Shown here: one piece after another, positions 7,151-38,590 of the stretch | How the letters are laid out: every line of letters begins with the position of its first letter | Position numbering within the stretch: the stretch's first letter is position 1 | Translations under genes and position numbers: made by a program | Notes under the pieces: model-generated | Told to the model about the DNA's origin: nothing | The model's database searches: none | The model's input: only the letters and a program-made list of their open reading frames with translations | Assembly (NCBI GenBank): GCA_965219685.1 | Contig: CBDCOH010000002.1 | Location: 1,472,001 to 1,536,000, forward strand | Origin: Candidatus Spongiisociaceae bacterium | GTDB taxonomy: Bacteria > Actinomycetota > Acidimicrobiia > Spongiisociales > Spongiisociaceae | Reading direction: 5' to 3' | Length of the DNA: 64,000 nucleotides

Positions 7151-7242
7151 TGGTGGCTGGTGAGTGGTGAGTAGTGAGTAGTGAATGGTGAACAGTGTCA
7201 GTATAATCTAATATAACCTAGCAACTAGTAACTAACAACTAG
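7151..7242. repeat. Head-to-head heptamer repeat array: TRGTGAR arm, AT-rich core, CTARYAA arm
   Basis: TGGTGGC TGGTGAG TGGTGAG TAGTGAG TAGTGAA TGGTGAA ... CTAGCAA CTAGTAA CTAACAA. Confidence 0.85.
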
Positions 7243-7799
7243 CATCTAACAGGGCCTTGCCGGAGGACGGCGGGGGGATCGAGGGTTAGGTCGACCACGG
7301 TGGAGGCTTGGCCGCCGTGACAGCGGCCTTCCACGTAGACGGCCACGCCGTCACCCAGCGCTTCCCGCGCGCCGGCGGAGTCGATTGCGGGAGGAGATCC
7401 GCTCCGGTTGGCGCTCGTGACCGCCAGGGGACCCGACCGCGTGAGGAGGTCCCGGAGCTTCGGGTGGTCGGGCATGCGTACCGCCAGGGTTCCACGCCGG
7501 TGGTCCCCCACTCCCTCGGCCAACTCCACTTTGCTCCGCAGGATGGCGGTGAAGGCTCCGGGCCAGAACTTGCCTACCAGTTTCCGAGTTTGCCCGGTGA
7601 GACGAACCAGATCCTCCGCTTGGTCGAGTGAAGCCACCAGCACGGCCAGCGGCAGGTGCTCACCGCGTCCCTTGAGTTCGAACAGTGCACGGACGGCGAC
7701 CGGCTCGGCCGGATCCACCGCCACTCCGTAGACCGTGTCGGTCGGGATGCCCACGATCAGGCCGGATCGGAGGGCGCGCAGCGCTACCTCGACGCTCAT
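7239..7799 (-). CDS. tsaC: L-threonylcarbamoyladenylate synthase (Sua5/YwlC/TsaC)
   Basis: PTDTVYG, KGR, TSANRSG, STVVD; ATGA overlap with the prmC stop. Confidence 0.93.
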   Translation of the reverse strand: MSVEVALRALRSGLIVGIPTDTVYGVAVDPAEPVAVRALFELKGRGEHLPLAVLVASLDQAEDLVRLTGQTRKLVGKFWPGAFTAILRSKVELAEGVGDHRRGTLAVRMPDHPKLRDLLTRSGPLAVTSANRSGSPPAIDSAGAREALGDGVAVYVEGRCHGGQASTVVDLTLDPPAVLRQGPVRC

Positions 7800-8605
7800 C
7801 GTTCCATCCACGCGAGCAGGAAGCGGTCCCGTCCAGTCCAGTCACGCTCGACGGTCGCCTCCCATCCGCCGCCGTGGAAGAGCCTTGTGACGTCGCGGCC
7901 TTGGAGTTCTCCGATCTCGGCAACCAACACGCCGGTCGGTGTCAACCACGAGAACCCTCCGCTTGCCAGGTGCCGGTACATTTCCAAGCCGTCGCCCATA
8001 ACCAGTGCCGACCTGGGTTCGTGATCCCGTACATCCGTCGGGAGGTCCGGCCAGTCCGCTTCGGCCACATAGGGAGGATTGGTCACGATCACCGACACGG
8101 AGCCCTGCATCGATGGATCCAAGGCGGCAAGGCCATCACCGTTGCGGAAGTCCACCTCCAGGGTCAAGCGTCCTGCGTTGCTCCGGGCCAGGTCGAGGGC
8201 GTCGGAGGAGATATCGGTGGCGACCATGTGGATGTCCGGGCGTTCGTGCTTGATGGCCAGGGCCAGACAACCGGAGCCCGTCCCGATGTCGACCACGCGG
8301 CATGGTTGGCCCGGAAGCAGCGCCATCACCCTCTCCCACAACTGTTCCGTCTCGGGACGTGGGATCAACACGCGGCGGTCCACCTCCAGTTCGATAGGAC
8401 CGAACTGGACCGTCCCCTCCAGGTACTGGAGCGGCTCGCCGGCCTTCCGGCGTGCGACCAGCCGACCAAACCGGAACGCTCCGGCCTTATCCACCGGCAT
8501 CCCTCCCACCACGGTCGACCGGGGGGCTCCGGTCACCAGACGCAGAAGTCGCTCCGCCTCATGACGAGCCAACCCTGACCCGGAAACCAGTTCCCGTGAA
8601 CTCAT
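7796..8605 (-). CDS. prmC: Release factor glutamine methyltransferase
   Basis: GEPLQY, VLIPRPETE, DIGTGSG, NPPY. Confidence 0.96.
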   Translation of the reverse strand: MSSRELVSGSGLARHEAERLLRLVTGAPRSTVVGGMPVDKAGAFRFGRLVARRKAGEPLQYLEGTVQFGPIELEVDRRVLIPRPETEQLWERVMALLPGQPCRVVDIGTGSGCLALAIKHERPDIHMVATDISSDALDLARSNAGRLTLEVDFRNGDGLAALDPSMQGSVSVIVTNPPYVAEADWPDLPTDVRDHEPRSALVMGDGLEMYRHLASGGFSWLTPTGVLVAEIGELQGRDVTRLFHGGGWEATVERDWTGRDRFLLAWMER

Positions 8606-8619
8606 GTAGCAGCCCGGGC

Positions 8620-8880
8620 TCAGAAGTCGTAGATGCCGAATCGCTGACCGAGGGCGGGGAGGTCGATAATCGTGGAGGCGGGAAGGCCCAGTCCTCGGAG
8701 TTCCGCGGCCAGCACGGCCATCACCGGCGGCAGATCCGCCCGCTCCTGGATCTCCACGTCTACGGCTGAGGCGGACGCGCCGATCACCGAGCCGGCGCGG
8801 CCCACGCAGGCCTGTACGACTTCCTCGACCGCAGCGGGGGGAAATCCGGCGTCGGGCGAGAACCGGACGAAGAAGATCAC
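8620..8880 (-). CDS. Small hypothetical protein
   Basis: 86-aa ORF with a GTGA overlap on the prfA stop, filling the prfA-prmC gap. Confidence 0.65.
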
Positions 8881-9956
8881 ATTCCCTCCCCTAGGCGCCG
8901 GGCTGTCTCCTCAGCCTCCAGCGCTTCCACGAACTGGTCGAGTGCTCCCTCGAGGATCTGGGGCAGCCGCTTGACGGTGAGACCGATCCGGTGGTCGGTG
9001 ACCCGGTTCTCCCGGTAGTTGTAGGTGCGGATCTTCTCGGAACGGTCGCCGCTCCCTATCTGCGATCTGCGGCCGGCCGCCCGCTCGGCGTTGCGAGCCT
9101 CCAACTCCTCCTGGTAGAGCCGCGCCCGCAACACACGGAAGGCCTTCTCTTTGTTCTGGAGTTGCGACTTCTCGTCCTGGCAGGTGACCACCACCCCGCT
9201 CGGGAGATGGGTGACGCGTACCGCCGAGTCGGTGGTGTTGACCGACTGGCCCCCCGGACCCGATGAGCGGAACGTGTCCACCTTCACGTCGGAAGGGTCG
9301 ATCTCCACCTCGACGTCCTCCGCCTCGGGCATGACCGCAACCGTCGCGGTCGACGTGTGCACCCGACCTTGCGACTCGGTCTTCGGCACCCGCTGCACCC
9401 TGTGCACACCGGCCTCGTACTTGATCTTCCCGTATGCGCCCTTACCCTTGACAGCGAAGGTGACCGTGCTGTATCCGCCCGCCTCGGCCCCGGAACTGCT
9501 GAGAGGCTCCGCGGTGAAACCGAGAAGTTCGGCATATCGCTGGTACATCCTGAGGAGGTCACCGGCCCAGAGGGCTGCCTCGGCACCACCCGCCGCCGCC
9601 CGGATCTCGACGATCACGTCCTTCGAGTCGTCCGGATCCCGAGGCGCCAGAGCGGAACGGAGTTCTTCCACGAGACGGTCCGCCTCAGCCTGCCTTCCCC
9701 TGGCGAGTTCGAGGAACTCGGAGGCATAGTCGGGATCCTCCTCGGCGTCGGCCAACTCGATCGCGTCGCTGGCTTCCCGCTCGGCCTCCTGCATGGCCTT
9801 GTACGAGACCACCACGGGACGGAGTTCGGAGTAACGACGGCCTACCTCCGCGTAGCGAGCCGGGTCAGCGAGCACTTCCGGATCTGCAAGGAGCCCCTCG
9901 GTCTCGTCGTAGGCGACCTGGATCTCCTCCAACCGGTTGACCAGTCCATCCGTCAT
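8877..9956 (-). CDS. prfA: Peptide chain release factor 1
   Basis: GGQ motif, [27 protein letters not shown]; start MTDGLV at 9956. Confidence 0.97.
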
Positions 9957-9964
9957 GGCGCCGG

Positions 9965-10897
9965 TCACCGCCCGTAGGCCGCCAGCGCCTCGGGGACGAT
10001 CGGACCCCTGGCCCGTACCTCGCCCACCTCCTCGTCCGTCAGGGCATGCAGGAGGGCGACCACAGCCACCTCGATCATCGACTCCTCCGGTGCCCTGGTG
10101 GTGAGGCGCTGCAACCACAGCCCGGGAGCGGTGAGTACGCGGCCCACCAGACGGTCGACCTGCGATCCCCCCAACTTGAGTATCTCGTAGGAGAGACCGG
10201 CCACAAGCGGGATAAGGACCACCCGGCTGGCTATGAGCCAATACCACGGCAGGCTCCCCACCAGGCTGAACACGACGATGGCAACCAGCATCACGATGAG
10301 CAGGAAGCTGGTTCCGCACCGCGGGTGTTCAGGCCGATAGTTCCCTATGTGGTCGAGGTCGAGCGGATCTCCCGCCTCGTAGGCGTGGATGGTCATGTGC
10401 TCGGCCCCGTGGTAGGCGAAGACCCTCCCGATCTCCTCCCACCGTCCGATCAGCCAGATGTACCCGACCAGCATCGCGATGCGGACCACCGCCTCCACCA
10501 GATGGAACCATGCGGACGACGCGTCCAGGCCACCCCAACGCGCCGCCAGCAGCGGAACCACTATGAACACCGCGACGAAGAACACGCCCGCCAGAGTCAT
10601 CGAGGTGGCCATCTGCCCGGTACTCACCGGTTCCTCGTCCTCCCCCGCCGACCGCTGCCCTGACCAGGCAAGGGCCCTGAAGCCCAGCGTAAGGCTCTCC
10701 CCCAGCACAAGCACCCCCCTCACGAGCGGGATTCTGGCCCATTTCGAACGGGAACTGAGCCGGGGAAGCTGGTGGGAGACCGCCTCGATGTCACCCCCGG
10801 GATTTCGCACGGCCACCGCCCAGCCCGACGGCGCGCGCATCATCACTCCTTCTATGACTGCCTGGCCCCCGACCGTGGCCCCTGGCGAACGCGACAA
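9965..10897 (-). CDS. DUF1385 family membrane protein (putative metal-dependent)
   Basis: [26 protein letters not shown]. Confidence 0.9.
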
Positions 10898-10915
10898 CGG
10901 AGGGCCGCCGCGACC

Positions 10916-11194
10916 TCAGGACGGGTCGCCCGCGCCCCCTCGCTCGCGGGCAAGCTTGCCGTAACGCCGCTCGAACCGCTCGACCCTCCCGGCCGTGTCC
11001 ACCAGCTTCTGCTTGCCGGTGAAGAACGGGTGGCTGGCGCTGGATATCTCCACCCTGGCGAGCGGGTACGTCTCTCCGTCCTCCCACACGATGGTCTCGT
11101 TGGTGCGGATCGTCGAACGGGTGAGGAATGCGAAGCTGGCGGACGCGTCCTGGAACACGACAGGTCGGTATTCGGGATGTATGTCTCGCTTCAC
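10916..11194 (-). CDS. rpmE: 50S ribosomal protein L31, type B (no Zn-binding Cys)
   Basis: [15 protein letters not shown]...[24 protein letters not shown]. Confidence 0.95.
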
Positions 11195-11302: not shown

Positions 11303-11336
11303 TAACTATCAACTGTCAACCAGCGACTGTCGACTA
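11303..11336. repeat. Degenerate heptamer array, C/A-rich arm abutting the rho stop
   Basis: CTATCAA CTGTCAA CCAGCGA CTGTCGA CTAG. Confidence 0.6.
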
Positions 11337-13188: not shown

Positions 13189-13193
13189 ACCGG

Positions 13194-13270
13194 TTCTCAG
13201 TTGCCGGTTGCCAGGCAACGGACCCCACTCACCACTCACCACTCACCACTCACCACTCACCACTCACCAG
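13194..13270. repeat. Heptamer array: short G/T-rich arm plus (CACTCAC)x6
   Basis: TTCTCAG TTGCCGG TTGCCAG, then six perfect CACTCAC at 13226-13267 abutting the thrC stop. Confidence 0.9.
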
Positions 13271-17862: not shown

Positions 17863-18657
17863 ATGCGACCTATTTGGAGCGGCGCCCTATCGTTCGGGCT
17901 GGTGACAATCCCGGTCCGCCTGTACAGGGCCACCGCGAGCCGCCGACCCCGATTCCGCCAGTTGCGCCGAGCCGATCACAGCCCGATTCGCTACCGCAAA
18001 GTGGCCCAAGCCGACGGTGTGGAGGTTCCGTCCGAGGACATCGTGCGAGGTTACGAAGTCGACAAGGGTAGCTACGTGGTCTTCACGGACGAGGAGATCG
18101 AGGCTGCCGGTCACCAAGGCGGACCGCGGATCGTGGATGTCATCGAGTTTGTGGACGCAACCGAAATCGACCCCATTTACTACCGGGCTTCCTATTTCCT
18201 GGAGCCTGACCCCACCGGGCAGAAGGCGTATTCGATCCTCAGGCAGGCGCTCGCCGATAAGAACCGTATCGGCCTCGCCAAGGTGGCCATCAGGGCGCGA
18301 ATGCACCTGGCCGCTGTCCGCCCCCGGGACGATGTTCTGGTTCTCGAGACCATGTACTGGCCCGACGAGGTGCGGGCCGCGGGCTTCGAGACCCTCAACG
18401 GCGAAGTCGAGGTGCGCGAGAACGAGGTGGCGATGGCCGAGATGCTCATAGATAACCTCACCGGCCAGTTCGATCCGGCTGCCTGGAAGGACGCAACCCG
18501 GGAGCGAATCGAGGAATTGGCGAGGAAGAAGATCGAGGGCGAGGAGATAGTGGTGCCCGACACCCCGGAGCCGACCCGCGTGGTCGACCTTCTCGAAGCC
18601 TTGAAGGCGTCGGTCGAGGCAACCCGCGCCCAGACTGCCCATCGCAAGGCGGGGTAG
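17863..18657 (+). CDS. ku: Non-homologous end-joining protein Ku
   Basis: MRPIWSGALSFGLVTIPVRLY, IVRGYE, IDPIYY, TMYWPDEVR, VVDLLEALKASV. Confidence 0.96.
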   Translation: MRPIWSGALSFGLVTIPVRLYRATASRRPRFRQLRRADHSPIRYRKVAQADGVEVPSEDIVRGYEVDKGSYVVFTDEEIEAAGHQGGPRIVDVIEFVDATEIDPIYYRASYFLEPDPTGQKAYSILRQALADKNRIGLAKVAIRARMHLAAVRPRDDVLVLETMYWPDEVRAAGFETLNGEVEVRENEVAMAEMLIDNLTGQFDPAAWKDATRERIEELARKKIEGEEIVVPDTPEPTRVVDLLEALKASVEATRAQTAHRKAG

Positions 18658-18700
18658 TCGGTGGCTGGTGGTTGTCCGGACGCCCCAGTGACAGTATCTA

Positions 18701-18781
18701 CACTGACCACTGACCACTGACCACTGACCACTGACCACTGACCACTGACCACTGACCACTGACCACTGACCACTGACCACT
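18701..18781. repeat. Perfect tandem repeat (CACTGAC)x11.5, preceded by a degenerate G/T-rich arm after the ku stop
   Basis: Read directly from the sequence. Confidence 0.97.
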
Positions 18782-18796
18782 GGGAGCACAACCACC

Positions 18797-22614: not shown

Positions 22615-22686
22615 CTGGGGGGACAGGAGTCGAACCCGTACCGGCGGGACCAAAACCCGCTGTGCTGCCAATTACACCACCCCCCA
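22615..22686 (-). tRNA. tRNA-Gln (UUG)
   Basis: TGGGGGGTGGTGTAATTGGCAGCACAGCGGGTT-TTG-GTCCCGCCGGTACGGGTTCGACTCCTGTCCCCCCAG; usual position upstream of glmU. Confidence 0.95.
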
Positions 22687-22687: not shown

Positions 22688-22829
22688 TGGTCGGTGGCCG
22701 GTGACCGGTAGCCAGTGGCCAGGCTTCCGTCGCTGCCCATTGACCACCTCTGGCCGGACCCAAGGATACCCGCTGTGAGGTGGTCCGGTGTCAAGGGACC
22801 GCGGACCCTCCAACCACTGACCATTGTTC
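22688..22829. repeat. Degenerate heptamer arms (TGGTCGG/TGGCCGG/TGACCGG ... CACTGAC/CATTGTT)
   Basis: Five G-rich units right after the tRNA; short C/A-rich arm abutting the ispE stop. Confidence 0.55.
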
Positions 22830-25280: not shown

Positions 25281-25329
25281 TAGTGAATGGTGAATGGTGA
25301 GTGGTGAATGGTGAATGGTGGCTGGTGAT
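25281..25329. repeat. Heptamer array (TGGTGAA/TGGTGAG), about 7 units
   Basis: Read directly; just upstream of the tatD -10 box TACGCT. Confidence 0.9.
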
Positions 25330-27748: not shown

Positions 27749-29122
27749 ATGCGGGTCGCCCTGATCTCCACGTACGAACTCGGTCGCCAGCCGATCCACC
27801 TAGCCTCCCCCGCCGCCCTACTCAGGGACCACGGCCATGATGTGAGGACGCTCGACCTGGCGGTCGAACCCTGGGACGACGGATTGGTCGCCTGGGCCGA
27901 GGCGATCGCGTTCAGCACGCCCATGCATACAGCTCTCCGGCTTGCGACTGCCGCCGCCAGCCGGGTCAAGGCGGGCCGGATAGGCCTCCCTCTCGCGGCC
28001 TATGGCCTGTACGCCTCCGTGGCGGGTACGGAAGGGCCGTTCGACCGCGCAATCGCCGGTGAGTACGAGCACCAACTACTCGAATGGGTCGGATCGCTCG
28101 AGCACGGGATCCCTGCGACGGGAACCACCACCTACCGGGGTCGCTCGGCGTTCCGGGTACCGGATCGGTCCGGGCTGCCCGCCCTTGATACGTACGCTCG
28201 GCTGCAATGCGGCCAGGACTCCGTATTGGTCGGATCGGTCGAGGCGAGCCACGGCTGCAGGCACGAGTGCCGTCACTGCCCCCTACCGACTGTCTACGGG
28301 GGACGATTCCGGGCGGTTCCCACCGACACCGTGCTCTCCGACATAGAGCGCCTGGTGGAGGCAGGAGCAGGCCATATCACCTTCGGCGACGCGGACTTCT
28401 TCAACGGACCCAGGCACTCGCTCCGAATCGCTACCGAGATGCACCGCCGCTGGCCGCATCTGACCTACGACGCAACCATCAAGGTGGAGCACCTGCGACA
28501 GTACGAGCGCGACCTGGTGACCCTCGTGGAAACCGGGTGCCTGTTCGTTGTCTCCGCCTTCGAGGTGCTGAACGATCGCATCCTCTCGATCCTCGACAAG
28601 GGCCACACCGCCGCCGATGCCTCCCTGGTCGTACATACGAGCCGCCGGGTCGGATTCGAGGTGCGACCCACCTGGCTCCCCTTCACGCCGTGGACATCGA
28701 TCGACGATGTTGCGGACATCTTCTCCTTCGTGGTCTCCCATGACCTGGTCGACCTGACCGACCCGGTCCAGTTGAGCATCCGCCTGCTCGTGCCGCGCGG
28801 CTCCCTTCTGGCGGAGCATCCGGCCTTCCTCCCTTACCGCGGCGACTATGACAACGCTCGGGCCACCTACCGGTGGCAATCCCCCGATCGGCGCGTCGAC
28901 AGCCTGGCCGATGAACTCGCAGAGCTGGCCGAGGAAGGAACCCACGTGCCACCGCGCACCACCTTCGCGCGGATGTGGCGCAGTACGTTGATTGCAACCG
29001 GCCTCGACCCCGGGCCTGCCGACTCGATTCCCCAGGGAGCGACCGTCGGCAGGCCGCGCCTCACCGAACCCTGGTTCTGCTGAGCGGAACCAACCGCGGA
29101 CCAGTTCGGTCCGCTCCGCTAG
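27749..29122 (+). CDS. CUAEP/CCAEP-tail radical SAM protein, probable selenoprotein (in-frame UGA at 29081)
   Basis: STYELGRQP N-terminus, CRHECRHC motif, HITFGDADFFN; C-terminus EPWFC-TGA-AEPTADQFGPLR-TAG. Confidence 0.88.
29084..29119 (+). promoter_or_regulatory. Putative bacterial SECIS element
   Basis: Upper stem GCGGACC/GGTCCGC with loop AGTTC about 20 nt after the UGA; lower stem GCGGA/TCCGC. Confidence 0.7.
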
Positions 29123-29236
29123 TGAATGGTGAATGGTGAATGGTGAAGTTCTAACCAATCACCACTCACCAATCACCACTCACCACTCACCACTCACCAC
29201 TCACCACTCACCACTCACCACTCACCACTCACCACT
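29120..29236. repeat. Head-to-head heptamer array: (TRGTGAA)x4, core, (CAMTCAC)x~11
   Basis: Read directly; fills the gap between two convergent stop codons. Confidence 0.95.
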
Positions 29237-29238: not shown

Positions 29239-30684
29239 CTACCAGGCCACGTACTTCAGTTCGAGGTACTCCTCCATGCCGTGGTGGCTGCCCTCGCGCC
29301 CGATTCCGGACTGCTTCACCCCCCCGAACGGGGCAGCCGGGTCGGAGATGAGACCTCTGTTGAGGGCGACCATGCCGGACTCGATCGCCTCGGCCATCCG
29401 GAAGCCGCGGTTTATGTCAGAGGTGTAGACATAGGAGATCAGGCCATGCACCGTGTCGTTGGCCGCGTCGACCACCTCCTCCTCGGTATCGAAGGACACG
29501 ACCGGTGCCACAGGCCCGAAGATCTCATGGTCGAGGATCGTCGAGTCGGGGGACACCTCGGACAGAACGGTGGGCTCGTAGAAGTACCCGGGGCGATCCG
29601 GTGCTCGGCCCCCGGTCCTCACCGTGGCGTCACCGTCCACGGCTCCGGTTACCAGCGAGTCGATCTTCTCAATCGCCTGGGCATTGATCATCGGCCCCAC
29701 CTGGTTGGAGCGATCGATCCCCGGACCCATCCGCAGGACGGACATCGCTTCGGTCAGGCGTGAGGTGAATGCCTCGGATATGCCGCCCTGCACGTAGAAG
29801 CGATTGGCGGCCACGCAGGTCTCGCCCGCGTTGCGCATCTTGGCGAGCATTGCTCCTTCGATGGCGGCGTCGAGGTCGGCGTCGTCGAACACGACGAACG
29901 GTGCGTTGCCGCCCAACTCCATGCTGGTACGCATTATGCGGCTTCCGGCCTTGGCCATGAGCAGCTGCCCCACCTCGGTCGAACCGGTGAACGACAGCTT
30001 CCTGACCCTCGGGTCCTCCAGGATCGTGTCCACAACCCCCGACGAGCCGCGAGCGGTCACCACGTTCACGACTCCGGGAGGTAGACCGGAGTCGGCAAGG
30101 ATGTCCGCCACTGCCAGGGCGGACAGCGGGGTGTCCGAAGCGGGCTTGAGGATGGTCGTGCAGCCCGCCGCCAGGGCCGGACCGAGTTTGCGGGTCGCCA
30201 TCGCCGACGGGAAATTCCAAGGGGTCACCATGAGGGAAATCCCCACCGGTTCGGGCGCCACGATGATGCGCTTGTCGCCGGCCGGAGCAGTCCGGAACTC
30301 GCCGATGATGCGTACTGCCTCCTCGGAGAACCAGCGGAAGAACTCGGCCGCGTACCTGACCTCTCCCAAGGCATCGGCATAGGTCTTGCCGTTTTCCAGG
30401 ACTATCAACTCGGCCAGTTGTTCCTCCCGGGTCAGCATCTTCTCGTAGGATCGTCGAAGGATCTCGCTGCGCAAGCGGGGAGCCGTTGCCGCCCAAGCGG
30501 GGGCCGCTTCCGCGGCGGCGTCGACCGCAGACCTCGCCTGGTCGTGCCCCGCCGTCGAGACAGCGGCCAGCACCTGTTCGGTGGCCGGATCTATCACATC
30601 GAGTTCGCTGATCCCCTCCGCCCACTCGCCACCGATGTGAAGTCCGGTCTTGGGGCCTCGCAACAGTTCGTCAACTACCGTCAT
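29239..30684 (-). CDS. gabD: NAD(P)-dependent succinate-semialdehyde dehydrogenase
   Basis: TPWNFP, SFTGST, MELGGNAPF, RNAGETC, EIFGP, PFGGVKQSGIGREG. Confidence 0.9.
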   Translation of the reverse strand: MTVVDELLRGPKTGLHIGGEWAEGISELDVIDPATEQVLAAVSTAGHDQARSAVDAAAEAAPAWAATAPRLRSEILRRSYEKMLTREEQLAELIVLENGKTYADALGEVRYAAEFFRWFSEEAVRIIGEFRTAPAGDKRIIVAPEPVGISLMVTPWNFPSAMATRKLGPALAAGCTTILKPASDTPLSALAVADILADSGLPPGVVNVVTARGSSGVVDTILEDPRVRKLSFTGSTEVGQLLMAKAGSRIMRTSMELGGNAPFVVFDDADLDAAIEGAMLAKMRNAGETCVAANRFYVQGGISEAFTSRLTEAMSVLRMGPGIDRSNQVGPMINAQAIEKIDSLVTGAVDGDATVRTGGRAPDRPGYFYEPTVLSEVSPDSTILDHEIFGPVAPVVSFDTEEEVVDAANDTVHGLISYVYTSDINRGFRMAEAIESGMVALNRGLISDPAAPFGGVKQSGIGREGSHHGMEEYLELKYVAW

Positions 30685-30711
30685 TCATTCCTCCTGTATG
30701 GCCGCCGGCGC

Positions 30712-32427
30712 TCAGATACCCAACGATCCGATCAAGTCGTCGGCGACTTGTCCAGCCTTCTCGACGAGAGGTTCCTCGAGTGCGAACGGGTCGCCCGATC
30801 CGGGAACCGGCATGTGTGCATCCACGTAGATCTTAAGCTTCGGCTCGGTCCCGCTCGGCCGCACGAGTACGCGAGTGCCGTCATCGAGGTCCAGGGATAT
30901 CAGAGAGGCCGCCCCCAACCATCTCGGACGTGACCGGGCGCCCACCCGGTAGTCGGTGGTACGGGCTACCCGGATCCCGGCCAGCCGCCCGGGTGGGGAG
31001 GTCCCCAGGTTCGCCATCGCCGTCCCGATGGCGGCCAAGCCCGCGGACCCTGGCCTCCGGACACTCCTCTGAACCGAGACCCAGAGCCCGTAGCGCCTGT
31101 AGAGGGCGGCCAGCCGCTCGCGCAGGGTCCGTCCACCCCCGCGACACAGGGCTGCGAGATCGGCCATCGCCAGAGCGGCCGACACACCGTCCTTGTCGCG
31201 TACAGCCGGACCGATCGAGTAGCCGAGCGCCTCCTCGAATCCGAACACGAACTCCGCCGCGCCGGCGGCCTCGATTTCGAGGGCGGCGTTGGCGATCCAC
31301 TTGAACCCGGTGAGGGTGGTCTCGAAGCGCGCTCCGTGGTGGGCGGCGATGACCCCGGCCATCGGTGAGCTGACGATCGAGTTGATGAGGAGCGGTGTGA
31401 CCCCATCGCAGCGGCGCGAGAGCAGGTAGTCGCCCAGGAGCACGCCCACCTGATTCCCGGTGAGCGAGAACCAACCTTCCGGGCCGGGTACCGCCACTGC
31501 AAGGCGATCAGCATCGGGATCGTTGGCGAGCACGAGGTCGGCATCTACCCGTTCCGCCAGGCTCAACGCGAGGTCGAGAGCGCCCGGCTCCTCAGGGTTG
31601 GGAAAGTCCACGGTTGGGAAAGCACCGTCCGGTTCCATCTGCTCCCGCACCGGATGGACATCGTGGTAACCGGCTTCCTCCAGTACTTCGCGGACGAAGC
31701 GCCAACCGACGCCGTGCATCGGGGTATACACGATCCGGAGGCTCGGATCACCGGCGCTCCCGGACCGGCCACTCGCGAGCGTCCTCCGGTAACGCTGCCA
31801 CAACTGCTTCCCGGTCGGGACCGCGCCCGGGTGGACACCATCCAATGCCTCCCCTAACCGCGGCACATCTCTCGCCCCACCTACCCGGTCGATGGCAGCG
31901 GAAATGGCCGAGTCGACCGGAGGGACGATCTGAGCGCCGTTGGCGTCGTAGACCTTGTAGCCGTTGTCCCGGGGGGGATTGTGGCTGGCAGTGATCATCA
32001 CGCCTGCGGATGCACCCAGTTCCCCGACCGCGTACGCGACGAGGGGGGTCGGAACGGGTCCGGGCCAGAATCGGACTGCGATGCCCGCCGCGACGAGCAC
32101 ACCGACCGTATCGGCCATGAATCGAAGGCTGGAGGTCCGGGCGTCCCGTCCCACCACGACAGGGCCTGGCAGGGAACCGGAGTGGCGCTCCAGCAGGAAG
32201 TCCGCCAGCCCACGGGTGGTCCTTATCACCGAGGCGCGGTTCATACGGTTGGACCCCGCCTCCACCATGCCGCGAATCCCGGCCGTGCCGAATGTCAGTG
32301 TCCCGTCCATGCGCTCCGCCAACTCGGCCGACTCACCTGACTCGAGAAGCGACTCGAGTTCCTCCCGGGTGGAAGGGTCGGGGTCGGCAGCGATCCAAGC
32401 ACGGGTCCGTTGCAAGAGGTCGTTCAT
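30712..32427 (-). CDS. Phospho-sugar mutase (phosphomannomutase/phosphoglucomutase)
   Basis: FGTAGIRG, TASHNP, DPDADR, FEEALG, RPSGTEPKLK. Confidence 0.95.
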   Translation of the reverse strand: MNDLLQRTRAWIAADPDPSTREELESLLESGESAELAERMDGTLTFGTAGIRGMVEAGSNRMNRASVIRTTRGLADFLLERHSGSLPGPVVVGRDARTSSLRFMADTVGVLVAAGIAVRFWPGPVPTPLVAYAVGELGASAGVMITASHNPPRDNGYKVYDANGAQIVPPVDSAISAAIDRVGGARDVPRLGEALDGVHPGAVPTGKQLWQRYRRTLASGRSGSAGDPSLRIVYTPMHGVGWRFVREVLEEAGYHDVHPVREQMEPDGAFPTVDFPNPEEPGALDLALSLAERVDADLVLANDPDADRLAVAVPGPEGWFSLTGNQVGVLLGDYLLSRRCDGVTPLLINSIVSSPMAGVIAAHHGARFETTLTGFKWIANAALEIEAAGAAEFVFGFEEALGYSIGPAVRDKDGVSAALAMADLAALCRGGGRTLRERLAALYRRYGLWVSVQRSVRRPGSAGLAAIGTAMANLGTSPPGRLAGIRVARTTDYRVGARSRPRWLGAASLISLDLDDGTRVLVRPSGTEPKLKIYVDAHMPVPGSGDPFALEEPLVEKAGQVADDLIGSLGI

Positions 32428-32429
32428 GG

Positions 32430-32548
32430 TTGATTGGTGAATGGTGAATGGTGAGTAGTGAATGGTAGCCGTCCACTGTCAGGCGCCGGGTTGTCAGGTG
32501 CCGGGTTCCAACCCCAGTCACCACTCACCAGTCACCACTCACCACCCC
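32430..32548. repeat. Head-to-head heptamer array (TGGTGAA arm, CASTCAC arm)
   Basis: TGGTGAA TGGTGAA TGGTGAG TAGTGAA ... CAGTCAC CACTCAC CAGTCAC CACTCAC. Confidence 0.85.
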
Positions 32549-33754
32549 CTAGTCGGGTCGGCTCCGGATTGCGTAGACCTTGTAGTCGTGACGGTATGTG
32601 CGATGCGAATCGTCTATCTCCGTCCAACCCGCCACGCCTCGCTGGCGGCACTCGGCCGTCCAGGTCACCTGTAGCGTGATCGGGTAACCCGCCCGGTACC
32701 CGCTCCGGAGCGAGGACCTGCGGTAGACAGCCTCCTCGCCGTCGACGCTCACCGCCGCCGTTCCTCTCAGCAACCGGACGTCCCTGTACCGGGGTGCGTA
32801 CCTGTGGAAGGCACGGCGTCCCAGTTCGACTCCGTCGAGCGTGGCCAGGTCCGTGAAGTACCAGGAGACGCGGCTGACCCACATCCTCACGTACACCCGC
32901 TCGGATCCGACCCTGACCGTGAAGGAAGCCCTCGAGTCCGCCGTGTAGGAGGTCTCCATGGGGACACCTACGTAACCGTGCGCTGCCGGCCGCAGCCCCA
33001 GTCCCGGTGACGACTGATCCTCCAGCGCCTCGTCCAGGGCCTCGTAAGTCTCGGGCTCGTAGCACGCCCAGGGGTCGCCGGACTCGGTGGTCGGAGGAGC
33101 GGCGGTGGTCGGCGGCCTGGTGACGACCGGGGGACTCGTAGTCGAGGACGACTCCTCGGTGGTAGTCGGGTCGGTGGTCGATTTGGGGCAGTCGGGAGGG
33201 TGGGCGTCGTCGTCGCCGGAACAGTGGTCGTGAGGAGTGGTGACCCAGGTGCCGCAGTTGTTCGGGCTCGTGTCTGCCGGAAGATCGGGATCGCCTTCGC
33301 AGACCGGGTAGGTGGGACCCGTCCGGTCCTCGTGCTTACCCAGATACGTGAACTTTATGTCCAGGTCGTCGCCATGCGGATCGTGCCCACCTGCCTGGCC
33401 GATACCACAACTGTTGATCCTGCTCGGGTCGGGAGGCCGGATCTCCGAACCGCACGGCTTCCATTCCGGTCCGTCCTGCGACCAGCGAAGGCACCCCACC
33501 TGCTGTAGGTCGGGGATGTAACCCTTCTGCACGCATACCCATCGCATCCAGTAGTTCCAGTGGCGCTCCCAGTCCCATGTGGTGGCGGTGCGTCCCGGGT
33601 TCCAGGACGACGAGGGCGGGTCCGCACCACCCGGCTCCGACGCCCAGAGAGCCGCTAGGACCAGTAAACATCCAACCGCCAGCCATCCGACGGTCCCCGC
33701 GATCCGTTGCGGGCATGGCCGTACTGAATCACTGCCCGCGCCCGGCATCGTCAT
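32549..33754 (-). CDS. Secreted Cys/Trp-rich protein with a Thr linker and a C-terminal PKD-like beta domain
   Basis: Signal-like hydrophobic stretch; C-terminal P...GYVGVP, SWYF.D, YPITLQVTW resembles actinobacterial PKD-like secreted proteins. Confidence 0.65.
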   Translation of the reverse strand: MTMPGAGSDSVRPCPQRIAGTVGWLAVGCLLVLAALWASEPGGADPPSSSWNPGRTATTWDWERHWNYWMRWVCVQKGYIPDLQQVGCLRWSQDGPEWKPCGSEIRPPDPSRINSCGIGQAGGHDPHGDDLDIKFTYLGKHEDRTGPTYPVCEGDPDLPADTSPNNCGTWVTTPHDHCSGDDDAHPPDCPKSTTDPTTTEESSSTTSPPVVTRPPTTAAPPTTESGDPWACYEPETYEALDEALEDQSSPGLGLRPAAHGYVGVPMETSYTADSRASFTVRVGSERVYVRMWVSRVSWYFTDLATLDGVELGRRAFHRYAPRYRDVRLLRGTAAVSVDGEEAVYRRSSLRSGYRAGYPITLQVTWTAECRQRGVAGWTEIDDSHRTYRHDYKVYAIRSRPD

Positions 33755-34902
33755 GGGCGGGGGTCCGGTATGGCGTCGGGATACTCGTCCTCGTTGATCT
33801 CGGGGTTCGGGTCAGGGGGGCACCGGAAGTCGAACTCGAAGACCTCCAGGTAACCGTTCGCGATCCGGCAGTAGCCCTCCCGGTAGGAGAGCTTCCAGTC
33901 ACCATCGATCTGGACGAGGGTGACGGTTGTCCATGGAGCGAGCCGCAGATCCGGATGCCGGAATCTGAACTGGGCCGCGATCACCGCCCGGTCGAAGTGC
34001 GGACCGCCATGCCAACGGATGTCGTTGAATTGGATCTCCCACTCTGCTCGAATCTCGGGGTGAAACACACCGCCGCCGATCTGCAGTCCTATCTCCCGAA
34101 GGGCTGCGAATACCTCATCGAGCAGGTGGCTGTTGCGGATGGCGGAACGGCGCTGCTCGTCGGTGCCGAGCCAGGCCCACCGCATGACCCGCTTCACCTC
34201 CGCCAGGGTGCAGGGATCCTCTACGGGATGACCGTCCCATTTCCAGACCTCCTCCACCGACGCGCAGCGCTGCAGTGATTCCGCCCGAGTCGTAGGTGGG
34301 GACGTCGTCGTCGTGACGGTGGACGAGGACGACGTCGTCGCGGCGAGGGTGGTCGAGGACGATGTCGTTGGGGCGAGGGTGGTCGAGGACGAGGGTGCGG
34401 GCGCCCGGGTGGTCGACAACGACGTAGCCGGCCTGGTCGTGGTCGAGGACGAGGTTGTCTGCTCGGCGGCTGCCGTCGAAGAAGGGTCCGTTGACGACGG
34501 AGAGGGTGTAGAGGCTCCGGTCGTCGACGGCGACCCGGTGGTCTCCGGGAGGCCTTCGGTCAGCGGCGGTCCGGTCGTGGTCGGCTGCGACGTGGACACC
34601 GGCACACTCGGCTCGGACGCCCTGGTGGACGTGGAACCGCCCGCCGTGGCGGCGACCGCGGTGGAACCGGTCGCGACCGAGTCGGCAACGGAATCGCCGG
34701 CGGGAGGAGTAGTCGAAGTGGTGGACGGTGCAGGCTCCGCGGCGGCTGTCGGGGTCACGGCCGCTTCGGTGGTGACATTTGGAACCGGCGCGGCGGTCTC
34801 GGGGGACTCCTGCGTGTGCTCTGCCCGCAGGAGCAGGATCGCGGCCACCACGATGCCTGCCAAAGCAACTGCGATCAGGGCTTTCTCGACTGGACGGGCC
34901 AT
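33751..34902 (-). CDS. Membrane-anchored Ser/Thr/Pro-rich protein with a C-terminal globular domain
   Basis: N-terminal TM, about 180-aa S/T stalk, Cys/Trp-containing C-domain; ATGA overlap with the next gene. Confidence 0.75.
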   Translation of the reverse strand: MARPVEKALIAVALAGIVVAAILLLRAEHTQESPETAAPVPNVTTEAAVTPTAAAEPAPSTTSTTPPAGDSVADSVATGSTAVAATAGGSTSTRASEPSVPVSTSQPTTTGPPLTEGLPETTGSPSTTGASTPSPSSTDPSSTAAAEQTTSSSTTTRPATSLSTTRAPAPSSSTTLAPTTSSSTTLAATTSSSSTVTTTTSPPTTRAESLQRCASVEEVWKWDGHPVEDPCTLAEVKRVMRWAWLGTDEQRRSAIRNSHLLDEVFAALREIGLQIGGGVFHPEIRAEWEIQFNDIRWHGGPHFDRAVIAAQFRFRHPDLRLAPWTTVTLVQIDGDWKLSYREGYCRIANGYLEVFEFDFRCPPDPNPEINEDEYPDAIPDPRP

Positions 34903-35127
34903 CTTCCAACCTCTCGGGAACGGGTCGACGGAAGGCGTTCCCCGATCAGGTTATGGGTTCCCGCACACCTATCGAGTGTTAACTAACAATTACTTATCGC
35001 GATCTCACCCAAAGGACAACACAACGAATCGAATCGCAGGTGCGGGTCCATCGGCTCTCCGGCAACGGCAAGGCGAGAACAGAGAAGGAGGCTCAGGGTT
35101 CGCCGGTGGAAGACCGGCCGGTCCCCA

Positions 35128-36420
35128 CTACCAGAACCGCTCCGGCGACAGGGGTCCGGCGTCCAGGTCGGTAGGTAGTCCGCACAGCATCTGGGCGACC
35201 AGCCGGCCCGTGACAGGCCCGAGTGACAGACCGACCTTCCCATGACCGGTCGCGTAGGTGACGTTTTCCCAACGGCGCGCGGGGCCCACGATGGGGATCC
35301 CGTCAGGAGTCACCGGCCGGATGCCTGCCCAACGCTCCCGCACCGTCAGATCGGCGTCGAGGTTGACCCTGGCCCGGACGTTGGCCTCGACTTGTTCCAA
35401 ACGGCGGAGCGACGGCCTGGTGTCGAGGCGTCCCAACTCGAGCCACCCGCTCATTCTCATCCTGTCGCCCATAGGGTTGACCGCCACCCATCGGTCACCG
35501 ATCAGGAGGTTCAGACGAGGGCCGGTGCGAGGTCTGTCCACCGTCATGCTGTAACCCTTTCCGGGCTGCACGGGGATGGATTCTCCCAGGAGCGCTGAGA
35601 TCCCCTTCGTCCAGGCGCCGGCTGCGAGGACCACCTGGTCGGCCACCAGGGTGCCTCTCGAGGTTGTCAACTCGACGACCTTGCGTCCCGAGGTGCGGAA
35701 TTCCAAAAGTTCGGTGTGAGAAGCCAGACCCACGCCACGACCGGCGATGACCGCGGCCAGGCCCGCCAGGAACCCGGCGGGGTCGAGGCCGCCATCGTCC
35801 ACGCACAGGAAGCCCCCGATCACTTCATCGTTGAGCGACGGTTCGACTTCCCGGATCTTGGCGCGGTCATACATCTCGATCTGCACGCCGTAACGCTGCA
35901 TCTCCGCCGCCTCGTGCTTGGCAGCCTCGAACACCCGAGGGTCACCGTAGACATGGAGAAGCCCTTCGGGCCGGTAGCCGCACTCGATCCCCTCCTTCGT
36001 GATCAACTCCACCGCCAACTCCGCGCTCAGAAAACCGAGGGCAGCCAACGTGACCGCACCCCGGTGAGCAGCATCCCGGGTGCAGTTGAGCGCGAACCGC
36101 AGGATCCATCTCAGGTAATCGAGATCGAGACTCGGCCGGGCGGTCACCGGTCCAGTCCGGCGGAGGATCCCCTTTGTCACACCGGGCATGACTCCCGGCG
36201 CCGCCATCGGGATCACGTGGCTGGGAACGATGAAACCGGCATTGCCCACCGCGCTTCCACGCGCTACGGGACCCTTGTCGATAACAACCACCTCGCGGCC
36301 CATTTGCACAAGTTCGTAGGCGACGCACAGCCCGATGACGCCGCCCCCGATCACCGCAACGTCGGTCTCACCCGGGACGCAAGGCGTGGGGTCGGTGGGA
36401 GCAACTGATTCCCGAGGCAA
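35128..36420 (-). CDS. FAD-dependent D-amino acid dehydrogenase family protein
   Basis: GGGVIG, SAVGNAG, GKGYS, WAGIRPVTPDG.P, GHG..G. Confidence 0.9.
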   Translation of the reverse strand: MPRESVAPTDPTPCVPGETDVAVIGGGVIGLCVAYELVQMGREVVVIDKGPVARGSAVGNAGFIVPSHVIPMAAPGVMPGVTKGILRRTGPVTARPSLDLDYLRWILRFALNCTRDAAHRGAVTLAALGFLSAELAVELITKEGIECGYRPEGLLHVYGDPRVFEAAKHEAAEMQRYGVQIEMYDRAKIREVEPSLNDEVIGGFLCVDDGGLDPAGFLAGLAAVIAGRGVGLASHTELLEFRTSGRKVVELTTSRGTLVADQVVLAAGAWTKGISALLGESIPVQPGKGYSMTVDRPRTGPRLNLLIGDRWVAVNPMGDRMRMSGWLELGRLDTRPSLRRLEQVEANVRARVNLDADLTVRERWAGIRPVTPDGIPIVGPARRWENVTYATGHGKVGLSLGPVTGRLVAQMLCGLPTDLDAGPLSPERFW

Positions 36421-36493
36421 AATGGACCTTTCTCGAGTTCCGTCGTCGTGGTCATGGAGTGGCGAGTGCCATCACGATACCGGAGATCTAGCA

Positions 36494-36545
36494 GGTGGTT
36501 ACTAGTCGTTAGTTTTTAGTTGTTAGTTACTAGTTGTTAGTTACA
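36494..36545. repeat. AT-rich heptamer array (TTGTTAG/TTACTAG-type)
   Basis: TTACTAG TCGTTAG TTTTTAG TTGTTAG TTACTAG TTGTTAG. Confidence 0.85.
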
Positions 36546-36576
36546 ATGGACAATACGGATGTCTAACAAATGACGC

Positions 36577-37275
36577 CTAATGCCGTGCCCGGCGGTAGGC
36601 AACCAGATCCGAGCCGGCGAAGACCAGGATGAGCACTGCCCCCAGGATCAGACCCCTCTGCCAGAACCACACGGCCGCTGCCACTCCCACGATCAGACCG
36701 ATAATGCGGGCGTGCAGATCGCCGCTGGGACCAAGAATCCTGATGAGGACGACCCGCAGCATCTTCGATCCGTCAAGACCCCCTACAGGCAGCCAGTTGA
36801 CCAACCCCCACACGACGGATACCCAGATGAACGCCCCCACGACGAAGGTCAGGTACTCGCCGTGCAGGTCCGCAAGCCGGAGATGAACACGCCAGGGGGC
36901 GTCGATGATCACCCTCGCCGCCTCGCCCATCCCACCGGCCCGGACGAACAGGTAGAGCCCCAGGCCTGCGAAGAGACCGACCCCGGAACCGGCGGCGGCC
37001 ACGACGAAGTGCTTCCAGGGACGCAGCCGCCGGGCGCTCTCCCGCCAGACCGTTGCGCCTCCGAGCGCATAGATGGTGATGCCTTCTACGTGACCGCCGA
37101 ACCGGCGCACCGTGGCGGCATGGCCCAACTCGTGCAGTATGACCGAGATCAGGATTGCGAGCGCCCATAGCACGACCGCCACGCCGCTGAGCCCCGAATC
37201 GATGAACAGGACGAGGAGGAGCAGGAAGCTGAAGTGGATCCCGGTCGGGAATCCGAACAGCCTGAAACGAAGCAC
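36577..37275 (-). CDS. Site-2 protease (M50) family membrane metalloprotease
   Basis: HELGH, AAAG, NWLPVGGLDG motifs; multiple TM helices. Confidence 0.9.
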   Translation of the reverse strand: MLRFRLFGFPTGIHFSFLLLLVLFIDSGLSGVAVVLWALAILISVILHELGHAATVRRFGGHVEGITIYALGGATVWRESARRLRPWKHFVVAAAGSGVGLFAGLGLYLFVRAGGMGEAARVIIDAPWRVHLRLADLHGEYLTFVVGAFIWVSVVWGLVNWLPVGGLDGSKMLRVVLIRILGPSGDLHARIIGLIVGVAAAVWFWQRGLILGAVLILVFAGSDLVAYRRARH

Positions 37276-37285
37276 CGGACCAGGG

Positions 37286-37432
37286 TAGTGAGTGGTGAGT
37301 GGTGAATGGTGAATGGTGAATGGTGAGTTAGTGAATGGTGAATGGTGAATGGTGAGTTAGTGAATGGTGAATGGTGAGTAGTGAATGGTGAATGGTGAAT
37401 AGTGAATGGTGAATGGTGAATAGTGAATGGTG
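37286..37432. repeat. Long heptamer array (TGGTGAA/TAGTGAA/TGGTGAG), about 20 units
   Basis: Read directly; begins at the -10 box (TACCCT) of the M50 gene. Confidence 0.97.
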
Positions 37433-37455
37433 CCTAGGTGAGTTACACGTAACCC

Positions 37456-38478
37456 TTAGGACCTGACACCCAACTGTTCCAGGGCGTGATCGGCGAGGCG
37501 TTCCACCGAACGGGCTAGTTCACCCAGGTCGACCTCTGCGATGTTGGCCATCGCTCCGTGGAGGTAGCGGGCGTATACACCTTCGAGGATGGCCGCCAAG
37601 CGCCACGCCTGGAACGCCTCGTGGTAGCGAATGCGAGAAACGTCAGCCCCGGTGAGACGCATGTACATGGCCACCATCTCGTCGCGGCGCGGGAATCCCC
37701 CCGCCTGGATGGCAGAGGAGCGCCACAACGACGGTTCGTCGGGACCGATCCAATCGAGCGCCAGATAGCCGAGATCGGCGAGGGGATCGCCCAGGGTGCA
37801 GAGTTCCCAGTCCACGACCGCGCGCACTCTCCCGCCATCCACGATCAAGTTGCCGAGGCGGTAATCGCCGTGGACCACGGAGGCGCGTTCCTGGCGAGGC
37901 ACACGTTCCTCGAGAAGAGCCCGCACACTATCCATTGCAGGCAGGTCGCGTTGTTTCGAAGCTTCGAGCTGGCGGGCCCATCGATACAGCTGACGCTGGA
38001 GATATCCCTCTCGGCGGCCCAGATTCCCGAGTCCGATCTCGTCTGGATCCAGCAGGTGGAGGTTCGCCAACACCTTCACGGCCGACTTCGCGACAGACCG
38101 GCGCTCGTCCGGAGGGATGAGGCCCCCCGCGTCACGATCGTGCAGCACGACGCCGTCGACGAACCCCATCACGTAGAACGGCGCCTCGTTCACTCCCGGA
38201 TCGGAGCACAGCCCCAGCGCGGGAGGGACCGGCACCCGCGATCCCTGGAGGGCGGAGATCAGCCGGTACTCCCTGGCCATGTCATGGGCGCTCTCCAAGA
38301 TGTGCCCCATCGGCGGTCTCCTCAGGGCGAACTCCCGCCCATCGCTGCCGCGTACCCTGTAGGTGAGGTTGGAGTTGCCACCCGGGATAGGCCGGAAGAC
38401 GAAGGGCGGCTCAGCACCCTCCACATTGGCTGACATCCATGCGCTGACGGATCGTTCGTCGATACCTGCTACAGACAT
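37456..38478 (-). CDS. Phosphotransferase family protein (APH/ACAD10-N-like)
   Basis: GGNSNLTY, LRRPP, AHDMAREY, HGDYRLGN, DWEL.TLGDPLADL. Confidence 0.9.
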   Translation of the reverse strand: MSVAGIDERSVSAWMSANVEGAEPPFVFRPIPGGNSNLTYRVRGSDGREFALRRPPMGHILESAHDMAREYRLISALQGSRVPVPPALGLCSDPGVNEAPFYVMGFVDGVVLHDRDAGGLIPPDERRSVAKSAVKVLANLHLLDPDEIGLGNLGRREGYLQRQLYRWARQLEASKQRDLPAMDSVRALLEERVPRQERASVVHGDYRLGNLIVDGGRVRAVVDWELCTLGDPLADLGYLALDWIGPDEPSLWRSSAIQAGGFPRRDEMVAMYMRLTGADVSRIRYHEAFQAWRLAAILEGVYARYLHGAMANIAEVDLGELARSVERLADHALEQLGVRS

Positions 38479-38532
38479 GAGTCTCCGGCGTCGCACGCCG
38501 TGACAGAAGATGGAACATGACCCGATCTAATG

Positions 38533-38590
38533 TTAACCACTGATCACCAACTAACAACTATAGACTACCGACTAGGAACTAGTCATCTAG
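38533..38590. repeat. Degenerate heptamer array, C/A-rich arm abutting the next stop
   Basis: CACCAA CTAACAA CTATAGA CTACCGA CTAGGAA CTAGTCA. Confidence 0.65.

Follow-up and report, generated by a model that had tools for sequence, protein, structure and literature searches.

Short tandemly repeated repetitive (STRR) sequences of cyanobacteria are arrays of heptamer units, and arrays of 7-base units are also the subject of this study, which concerns a window of 64,000 nucleotides (C2:1472001-1536000) in the 4.42-Mb, two-contig genome (G000) of a Candidatus Spongiisociaceae bacterium. In the spacers of the window, tandem heptamers form G/T-rich arms and C/A-rich arms, some of which are paired around a short core. 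The prevalence of 7-base repeats in some bacteria has lacked an explanation since at least 2007 (PMC4679880, PMC4692102). In Xanthomonas, Rehm et al. (2015; PMC4692102) described 186 GGGAATC repeats that lie nearer to the 5' neighbor regardless of the orientation of the open reading frame (ORF) and at stop codons, together with 70 inverted pairs; position was kept at 83% in a second species, and function was left unresolved. MacGregor (2015; PMC4679880) reported oriented TAACTGA arrays in Beggiatoaceae, Cyanobacteria and Bacteroidetes, and satellites have been suggested to move by an unknown transposition mechanism (PMC6749651). An intervening sequence (IVS) in the 23S rRNA gene of Coxiella carries heptamer repeats of variable number upstream of an S23p/PF05635 gene (PMC4990558), and telomerase-like reverse transcriptases (RTs) of the DRT10 type make tandem-repeat DNA (PMC12632851). 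We report that the arms package four-helix-bundle gene cassettes, and that the sites of the arms are conserved in a sister genome with their contents replaced.

Period-7 intergenic arrays proved to be a real feature of the genome, as a first-pass annotation of the window had supposed. We counted 401 period-7 segments genome-wide, compared with 4-7 segments at each of periods 5, 8, 10, 11 and 13 (period 14, as a multiple of 7, gave 343). Other periods served as the control for this count, since reversed units resemble the units and reversed sequence is therefore invalid as a control, a flaw shared by the control values of the cross-genome unit and array counts. Gene positions were obtained with a simple purpose-written gene caller (3,638 genes genome-wide), and only 6 of 353 strong arrays fell inside called genes. 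TGGTGAA and TGGTGAG together made up 1,394 of the 2,454 units recognized by a unit model; the common units carry at most GG, not the GGG tract of the G-quadruplex criterion.

The same annotation held that the G/T arm lies at the left of a spacer and the C/A arm at the right, whatever the orientation of the genes. The window alone barely tests this, nearly all of its genes being on the minus strand; genome-wide, the polarity was present in all four gene arrangements. G/T arms were closer to the left gene in 151 of 180 cases (43/45 between plus-strand genes, 63/68 in convergent and 12/15 in divergent spacers), the polarity being weakest between minus-strand genes (33/52), and C/A arms were closer to the right gene in 147 of 167. 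Where two arms lay within 260 nt of each other, the G/T-then-C/A order was found 71 times and the reverse order never. There was no leading- or lagging-strand bias (98/96 and 87/81). The polarity thus holds regardless of gene orientation, but it cannot count as a new and unexplained feature, having already been published for Xanthomonas and Nostoc PCC 7120 (PMC4692102). Stop codons are favored positions: 210 of 362 strong arms start between -25 and +8 from a stop codon in the G/T sense, compared with 11 in the other sense. This agrees with the annotated placement of arms at stop codons, except that the TAG singled out at 29120 is not a gene's stop, the radical-SAM gene ending at 29083. Arms were borne by 118 of 428 convergent spacers, 58 of 744 and 78 of 764 spacers between plus-strand and minus-strand genes, respectively, and 26 of 451 divergent spacers. 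No array is listed between 372880 and 384205, a region that includes the single 23S gene (C2:375214-378313). The same unit is carried by 59 viral loci, with the G/T-then-C/A order in 35 pairs versus 4 in the reverse order within 260 nt. Among the genes beside arms on viral contigs, 58 of 79 were scanned (duplicates and likely shadow frames were dropped); 9 had a Pfam match, mostly structural, with no recurring enzyme.

Arms of this kind package four-helix-bundle gene cassettes (PF05635/TIGR02436, a family for which we know of no function). The genome has one intact copy of the gene and one broken copy. The intact gene (C2:1041196-1041513; TIGR02436, E 8e-34) is located between gpmA and secG inside inverted TAGTTGN arms, and the broken one (C2:3558603-3558894) resides in a 1.3-kb cassette that has a TGGTGAG arm at one end and a TGGTGAA arm at the other; these units are the two dominant variants. 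Our set of relatives comprised 61 genomes, 20 of which have the family, and arms with genome-specific units flanked both sides of the gene at 18 of their 30 loci, as counted from the loci listed. Among the best 80 of 531 GTDB matches, 56 homologous loci had period-7 arms on both sides, compared with 3 of 73 control windows and with 0-1 loci at periods 5, 6, 8 and 9. The arms were inverted in 55 of the 56, and their units matched within one base in 49; the G/T-richer arm was upstream in 33, the order was reversed in 5, and 18 were even. L004 and L010 are loci with the reverse, C/A-upstream polarity, and 6-mer arms were found at L019 (G008) and L022 (G016). The first-pass annotation had offered scars of a small cassette with heptamer arms as one of its readings and had guessed at a four-helix-bundle cargo, and both ideas are supported by the filled cassettes here and in relatives, as well as by the filled and gene-less pairs at orthologous sites described below.

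The nearest solved structure to the four-helix-bundle protein is XCC0516 (2GSC, five chains, E 5e-26), and the supplement of the Xanthomonas study places GGGAATC repeat 15 over the start of XCC0516 (PMC4692102). Plasmid records with a homologue of the protein were from Nostoc in 18 of 45 cases, and no homologue was found in phage genomes. A metagenome scan gave 8 distant loci (61-75% identity), with arrays in one. No arms were detected at gpmA-secG in five congeners, where this region is rearranged or contains different genes and so gives no clean empty site; because two congeners hold another gene block where this genome has the four-helix-bundle cassette, the spacer is an insertion hot spot. 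As judged by eye, a block of DNA-cytosine-methyltransferase, GIY-YIG-like and Vsr-like genes occupies secG-gpmA in G005 (L093/L098) and G003 (L095/L099). Downstream of the broken gene and within its arms (C2:3557870-3558925) are two small ORFs of 62 and 100 amino acids (aa) with no Pfam match, possibly a toxin-antitoxin pair; the 100-aa ORF is also present elsewhere in G002 (90% DNA identity) and in G001.

Filled and gene-less forms occur at orthologous sites. In the sister genome G007, the site of a PemK/MazF toxin-antitoxin cassette (C2:4095380-4096127) has two arms with a core of 7 nt between them, and the cargo is kept there in G001 and partly in G002, with weak arms. About 1.3 kb at C2:906666 is replaced in G007 by arms with an unrelated core of 39 nt (the G007 contig breaks in the arm). 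In G008, a four-helix-bundle gene flanked by 6-mer arms occupies a site that is armed but gene-less here. G002 has an intact homologue (71% DNA identity) at the site of the broken gene, and the arms there consist of another unit. Such sites therefore show loss of cargo and rewriting of arms; arms may also bring cargo in. Some further sites were noted by eye. IS3-like elements lie inside or between arms at C2:596832-598222 and C2:2939764-2947949, the latter also holding a 1,913-aa surface-protein-like gene and corresponding to a gene-less cassette of 217 nt in G007. A possible cargo is the RNase H-like gene at C2:4278864-4279830, which has a G/T arm on one side and, on the other, a C/A arm with an AT-rich tail.

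We compared the sister genome with G000 over 896 kb of its 4.1 Mb (anchor identity 91%). Among 555 orthologous spacers, arrays were present in both genomes in 29, in one only in 21 and 16, and in neither in 489; simple arithmetic gives about 4 shared array spacers if presence were independent. Identity was computed for the 305 spacers within length limits, and its median was 0.85 for spacers with no arms (n = 243) compared with 0.52, 0.62 and 0.55 for spacers with arms (n = 17, 14 and 31); in convergent spacers the values were 0.82 without arms and 0.44 with them. Shared arms had the same dominant unit in only 1 of 34 cases, and the G/T-then-C/A order was seen at all compared sites (17/17 and 14/14). 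This genome has 919 matches to three consecutive TGGTGAR units; G007 has 6, and 59 further genomes have none. Armed gene ends kept their stop at the same codon in 35 of 50 cases, and arm-free ends in 200 of 228. Because the alignment of orthologous spacers shows whole contents replaced at shared sites, slippage alone is insufficient, as the first-pass annotation had argued. Alignments were made for 23 one-sided sites that lacked any trace of an arm; among the sites listed, most still held decayed arms or other inserts, and there was no general target duplication. One armed site was similar across three genomes of another genus. Since many G007 contigs (C6, C10, C16, C21, C45 and C48) start or stop in heptamer arrays, short-read assemblies probably undercount arrays and cassettes.

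The genes of the window are housekeeping genes (atp, glyA, rho, thrC, ku, glmU and gap), and the sequencing runs that contain its DNA are labelled as sponge, coral or marine metagenome, or with a coded organism name. Tandem Repeats Finder (TRF) detected twelve period-7 arrays from 7158 to 37432 (at 7158, 7218, 13225, 18701, 22688, 25283, 29122, 29154, 32426, 32514, 36503 and 37288). The degenerate arms at 11303, 13191 and 18655 were under the TRF score and visible by eye only, and the array at 38533 was recovered by the unit model. The first-pass annotation listed six spacers with both arms: three of these (7151, 29120 and 32430) have two clear arms, but the others have one degenerate arm. It also listed 38533 among the arrays of the system; a degenerate heptamer array is indeed there, but the site is the left end of a separate miniature inverted-repeat transposable element (MITE), which we call family A. 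No PF05635 gene is present inside the window, the features of which are as follows (positions within the window).

7151-7192, plus strand: G/T arm, TGGTGAR-type, belonging to a gene-less cassette with two arms in the glyA-tsaC spacer (TRF, unit model); in the sister genome this site has another core and an array of TGGTGGC.
7193-7217, no strand: AT-rich core, 25 nt, with no match elsewhere in the genome or in the compared part of G007.
7218-7251, minus strand: C/A arm that overlaps the stop codon of tsaC (7239-7241), TAGTTRN-type when read on the minus strand (TRF).
11303-11336, minus strand: degenerate C/A arm from the rho stop codon (by eye); the sister genome has a perfect array of another unit.
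13191-13215, plus strand: degenerate G/T arm, CGGTTGC-type (by eye); replaced in the sister genome.
13225-13269, minus strand: C/A arm of 6.4 perfect units beside the thrC stop (TRF); another unit in the sister genome.
17863-18657, plus strand: Ku gene, a bystander; Ku was found in 26 of 26 relatives, whether array-bearing or not.
18655-18675, plus strand: degenerate G/T arm from the Ku gene stop codon (by eye); similar in the sister genome.
18701-18782, minus strand: C/A arm of 11.7 perfect units, TGGTCAG on the minus strand (TRF); core and flanks are conserved in the sister genome, whose array is short, which points to local expansion.
22688-22720, plus strand: degenerate G/T arm beside the 5' end of tRNA-Gln (22615-22686) (TRF).
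25281-25329, plus strand: G/T arm, TGGTGAR (TRF, unit model); at this site, the sister genome carries a different unit together with a core and a C/A arm.
29120-29147, plus strand: G/T arm of a cassette with two arms, in a spacer where the radical-SAM and aldehyde-dehydrogenase genes converge (TRF, unit model).
29151-29236, minus strand: C/A arm of the 29120 cassette; its end and the stop at 29239 are 2 nt apart (TRF, unit model).
32426-32469, plus strand: G/T arm, TGGTGAR (TRF, unit model).
32477-32507, plus strand: inner 15-nt tandem repeat of AGGTGYC-type units (TRF); the genome has one look-alike at another place.
32514-32551, minus strand: C/A arm up to the stop codon at 32549 (TRF, unit model).
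36494-36544, plus strand: G/T arm, TAGTTRN-type (TRF, unit model).
37286-37434, plus strand: longest G/T arm of the window, with about 20 units and higher-order duplications inside it (TRF, unit model); G002 has a degenerate arm here.
38505-38590, minus strand: truncated left end of a family A MITE (IS982-derived) with a degenerate TAGTYNN array, its CTAG end overlapping the stop at 38587.

An Rfam search found two tRNAs only in window positions 5000-28500 and nothing at four cassette loci, although no search dedicated to a template non-coding RNA was carried out. A perfect 8-mer array of 4 units follows the pyruvate phosphate dikinase gene (47794-47825) and is G/T-rich and at the left of its spacer, as the heptamer arms are. 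An ORF of about 86 codons directly after the release-factor gene (8620-8880) is conserved in congeners. The other contig, C1 (30,458 bp), has phage-like genes (terminase-like, portal-like and DNA methyltransferase-like, by eye) and no period-7 arrays; its ORFs recur at a spacing of about 20.1 kb, and it is probably a circle of about 20 kb that was assembled one and a half times.

The two arms of a gene-less cassette are less alike than chance would make them. An identical unit was found in both arms in 1 of 71 cassettes, compared with 7.5 in shuffles, and the longest perfect stem between partner arms averaged 5.8 bp, compared with 8.5 bp. Stems of at least 14 bp were found in 2 of 71 cassettes (11.2±2.4 when shuffled) and in 12 of 38 filled loci elsewhere; the arms of filled loci are complementary (within one base in 49 of 56), in contrast to those of the gene-less cassettes here. 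Where both arms consisted of TGGTGAR, the A variant in one arm tended to go with the G variant in its partner (rho -0.77, n = 18, p 2e-4). Native partner arms were also predicted to fold less stably than shuffled ones, both as RNA (-28.9 versus -31.3±1.0 kcal/mol) and as DNA (-11.4 versus -13.8±0.6; n = 65). The arm mismatch in G007 pointed the same way, but not significantly (n = 21, p 0.10). The arms had no sense-strand preference (15/30), the corresponding value for the strand capable of wobble pairing being 5/8, and the wobble strand was on the leading strand in 12 of 18 cases, which is not significant. Perfect palindromes are known targets of SbcCD. SbcD and NucS are present in all 8 genomes of the genus, so that loss of either was rejected as a cause, and the presence of SbcD makes palindrome purging possible. 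Stem length showed no trend with core length (6.2, 5.6 and 5.5 bp), and purging of cruciforms was set aside as the cause on this ground; because of the missing trend, an asymmetric donor such as the C2:3557777 cassette, which would give the same mismatch pattern, is at least as likely as a purge. The mismatch may be either inherited from an asymmetric donor or due to the loss of perfect palindromes.

The cores have a median length of 22 nt, a G+C fraction of 0.55 versus 0.62, and a high TpA content (8.8% versus 1.8% in the genome). Among the 36 cores of at least 22 nt, 13 have look-alikes elsewhere in the genome. One multi-copy core family (up to 23 matches for one member) was absent from G007 at 5 of 5 compared sites, where G007 has other arms, three of them found by the detector and two by eye. 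The junction-like word GTTAAC was found 6 times in cores, compared with 0.7±0.9 expected. The promoter motif TANNNT was found 93 times, significantly more than in mononucleotide shuffles, but its excess over dinucleotide shuffles (77±8.7) was weak, and the cores were rejected as promoters for this reason. In mixed TGGTGAR arrays, the G variant was outside in 67 of 98, inside in 22 and tied in 9.

The array at 38533 is the end of a family A MITE. Family A is about 260 bp long, with CTAG ends and about 40 near-full copies (e.g., C2:4341225-4341490), and IS982 elements of 1.04 kb with matching ends are present in G002 and G001 (NF033520, E 4e-54). It was absent from G007 at 8 of 8 compared sites, and one CTAG was present at the empty site and two at the filled one, as seen cleanly at one site. 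A heptamer arm lies inside the left end of family A and is absent in the parent insertion sequence. MITEs with the same ends and other interiors occur in three genera of the bacterial family. Family A may seed some new sites. In the array-poor G005 and G006, spacers orthologous to window positions 35128, 36577 and 37456 contain other multi-copy MITE-like inserts, several with CTAG-type ends.

We consider it fairly probable that the arrays are gene-less cassette derivatives overwritten by arm-to-arm recombination and extended by slippage. The arrays would be the two arms left by a small cassette composed of a G/T arm, a cargo and a C/A arm, the typical cargo being a four-helix-bundle gene, with toxin-antitoxin pairs also found between arms. 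We infer that an armed spacer is overwritten repeatedly: recombination would begin inside an arm and copy the inner arm and core from another cassette, located elsewhere in the genome or on incoming DNA, and local slippage would lengthen the arms. Copying within the genome is supported by the cores that have look-alikes, by the multi-copy core family missing at the compared G007 sites, by the near restriction of TGGTGAR triplets to this genome and by the outer position of the G variant in most mixed arrays. The copying would probably be carried out by host repair functions, and the four-helix-bundle pentamer might possibly act as a repeat-binding factor. Overwriting would keep the polarity because all donors share it, would allow one dominant unit to spread per genome, and would lose the cargo. 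A minority of new sites would arise via the IS982-derived MITE, which explains the origin of sites only in part.

Several observations weigh against this reading of the arrays as overwritten cassette derivatives. There are only two PF05635 genes for about 400 arrays, and a PF05635 gene is not needed for arrays to be present, because they occur in G013 and G022-G028, including the single-contig G022, without a PF05635 match; none of the 59 viral loci has such a gene within 1.5 kb. With 23 of 36 cores lacking a look-alike in the genome, most donors are not visible. A test of whether outer units are older gave 22 versus 14 with 19 ties, some sites (18701) change by simple expansion only, and no enzyme for exchange was found, nor was a single recombination event caught in the genomes compared. 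Because relatives have the cargo with only weak arms at two toxin-antitoxin sites, such genes may be residents that became surrounded by growing arms, and not passengers brought in by them. A more elaborate version, which we hold to be rather unlikely, is a widespread, so far unrecognized cassette-exchange system with arms as generic docking sites at hundreds of gene ends, in which the four-helix-bundle pentamer (an Avd relative) would recognize the arms and another activity would swap cargo and short cores between sites, so that intergenic spacers would be rewritten in the time that two species need to diverge by 9%. If exchange is active, it would provide a route for toxin-antitoxin and other small genes into and out of fixed places in core operons.

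An explanation at the level of RNA is unlikely, in our opinion, although it accounts for part of the data. Selection would keep the arms as terminators, RNase III sites or binding sites for the pentamer, with their position alone being important and the unit drifting by slippage and mutation, and their preference for 3' ends and convergent spacers, the conservation of their positions between sister genomes and the matching arms of filled cassettes would be as expected, as would the cutting of the Coxiella IVS by RNase III at the first heptamer (PMC4990558). However, native partner arms fold less stably than shuffled ones and show no preference for the sense strand, the spacers that bear arrays in the window lack them in G004-G006, and the cores are replaced as well. 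Classical transposition, in which the arms are MITE passengers of a DDE transposase that inserts at CTAG, often over TAG stops, fits family A, with its IS982 ends, its absence from the compared sister sites, its CTAG duplication and the array in its left end. As a general explanation it is refuted, holding for a minority only, since the family A terminal repeat lies outside only 14 of 362 strong arms (about 4%); further, CTAG was not enriched at TAG stops with arms (34/111 versus 321/930), the IS982 transposase had no tblastn match in this genome, a test for repetitive extragenic palindromes and their associated tyrosine transposases (REP/RAYT) found no match to the Y1 (HUH) transposase PF01797 in the genome, and G010, G015 and G018 carry the terminal repeat but no TRGT-type arrays. 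We therefore regard it as improbable.

The first-pass annotation had offered another possibility, repeat addition to DNA ends followed by end-joining. In such a model, an enzyme would add G/T heptamers to broken ends, which Ku/LigD would then join, sometimes with a short piece of captured DNA. Such an origin would agree with the G/T strand running 5' to 3' inward, the genome-specific dominant unit, the polar unit order, the many unique cores and the GTTAAC excess, and telomerase-like bacterial RTs (DRT10) do exist (PMC12632851). The only RT in the genome is, however, a broken one of the group II intron type (PF00078, motif scan), and no intact RT that tracks the arrays was found with PF00078 and one motif scan, which a very divergent enzyme could escape. 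In the 26 relatives picked for the RT/Ku survey, which as kin are not independent, RTs were found in 8, being missing from the array-bearing single-contig genomes G002 and G022 and from the array-bearing G013, G020 and G058, and present in the array-poor G005 and G010, whereas Ku was found in all 26, array-free genomes included. One enzyme should give matched arms, and the partner arms are anti-matched; the TpA-rich cores are unlike captured host DNA, some are multi-copy, and the same arms package a gene family across phyla. Programmed repeat addition with Ku joining is, on these grounds, very improbable. Two simpler origins, unaided polymerase slippage from seeds that resemble stop codons and an artefact of assembly, are hardly credible at all as a full explanation. 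Slippage does lengthen individual arms (18701, and the higher-order duplications at 37286), but block replacement and the invariant order of arm pairs are not obtainable by it, and independent assemblies (G007, G002, G022 and viral contigs) share the design and polarity. Nor can selection for stop codons give polarity at divergent spacers, and several common units lack a stop codon on the G/T strand. Any mechanism must satisfy the same rules: a fixed arm order, conserved sites with replaced contents, cargo loss, one dominant unit per genome and anti-matched arms.

The arrays are real, non-random and of a published kind. With the repeats of Rehm et al. they share dispersed intergenic period-7 arrays, polarity, stop codons, inverted pairs in one order and kept positions with variation in length and sequence (PMC4692102). 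Unlike those repeats, the units here lack GGG, so that the G-quadruplex reading is inapplicable, several unit classes coexist, and unit and core are replaced at shared sites rather than only varied; the accessible part of that paper links the repeats neither to a four-helix-bundle gene nor to cargo loss. The TAACTGA repeats (PMC4679880) are likewise oriented intergenic arrays at gene boundaries, of unexplained origin and suspected horizontal spread, but they are mostly single arms before start codons, were interpreted as translational regulators, and are described in a main text from which the term 'helix bundle' is absent. Family A shares the terminal repeats and CTAG ends of the IS982 copies in two relatives, but differs from its parent in the heptamer arm, and it covers the 38533 array and only the small share of strong arms given above. 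DRT10 is antiviral and its product protein-primed (PMC12632851), and no such RT was found here with PF00078 and one motif scan. We found no paper in the open-access literature searched that ties PF05635 to genome-wide heptamer arms, that describes content replacement at fixed heptamer sites, or that reports anti-matched arms, and these three features are new with respect to that literature. The 23S IVS of Coxiella and Leptospira has the same protein family between inverted ends, with heptamer repeats upstream of the gene (PMC4990558), whereas the cassettes described here occupy ordinary intergenic spacers, are mostly gene-less with unmatched arms, and leave the 23S gene without an array; it is the combination of this genome, a close sister and congeners that ties 7-base repeats to PF05635.

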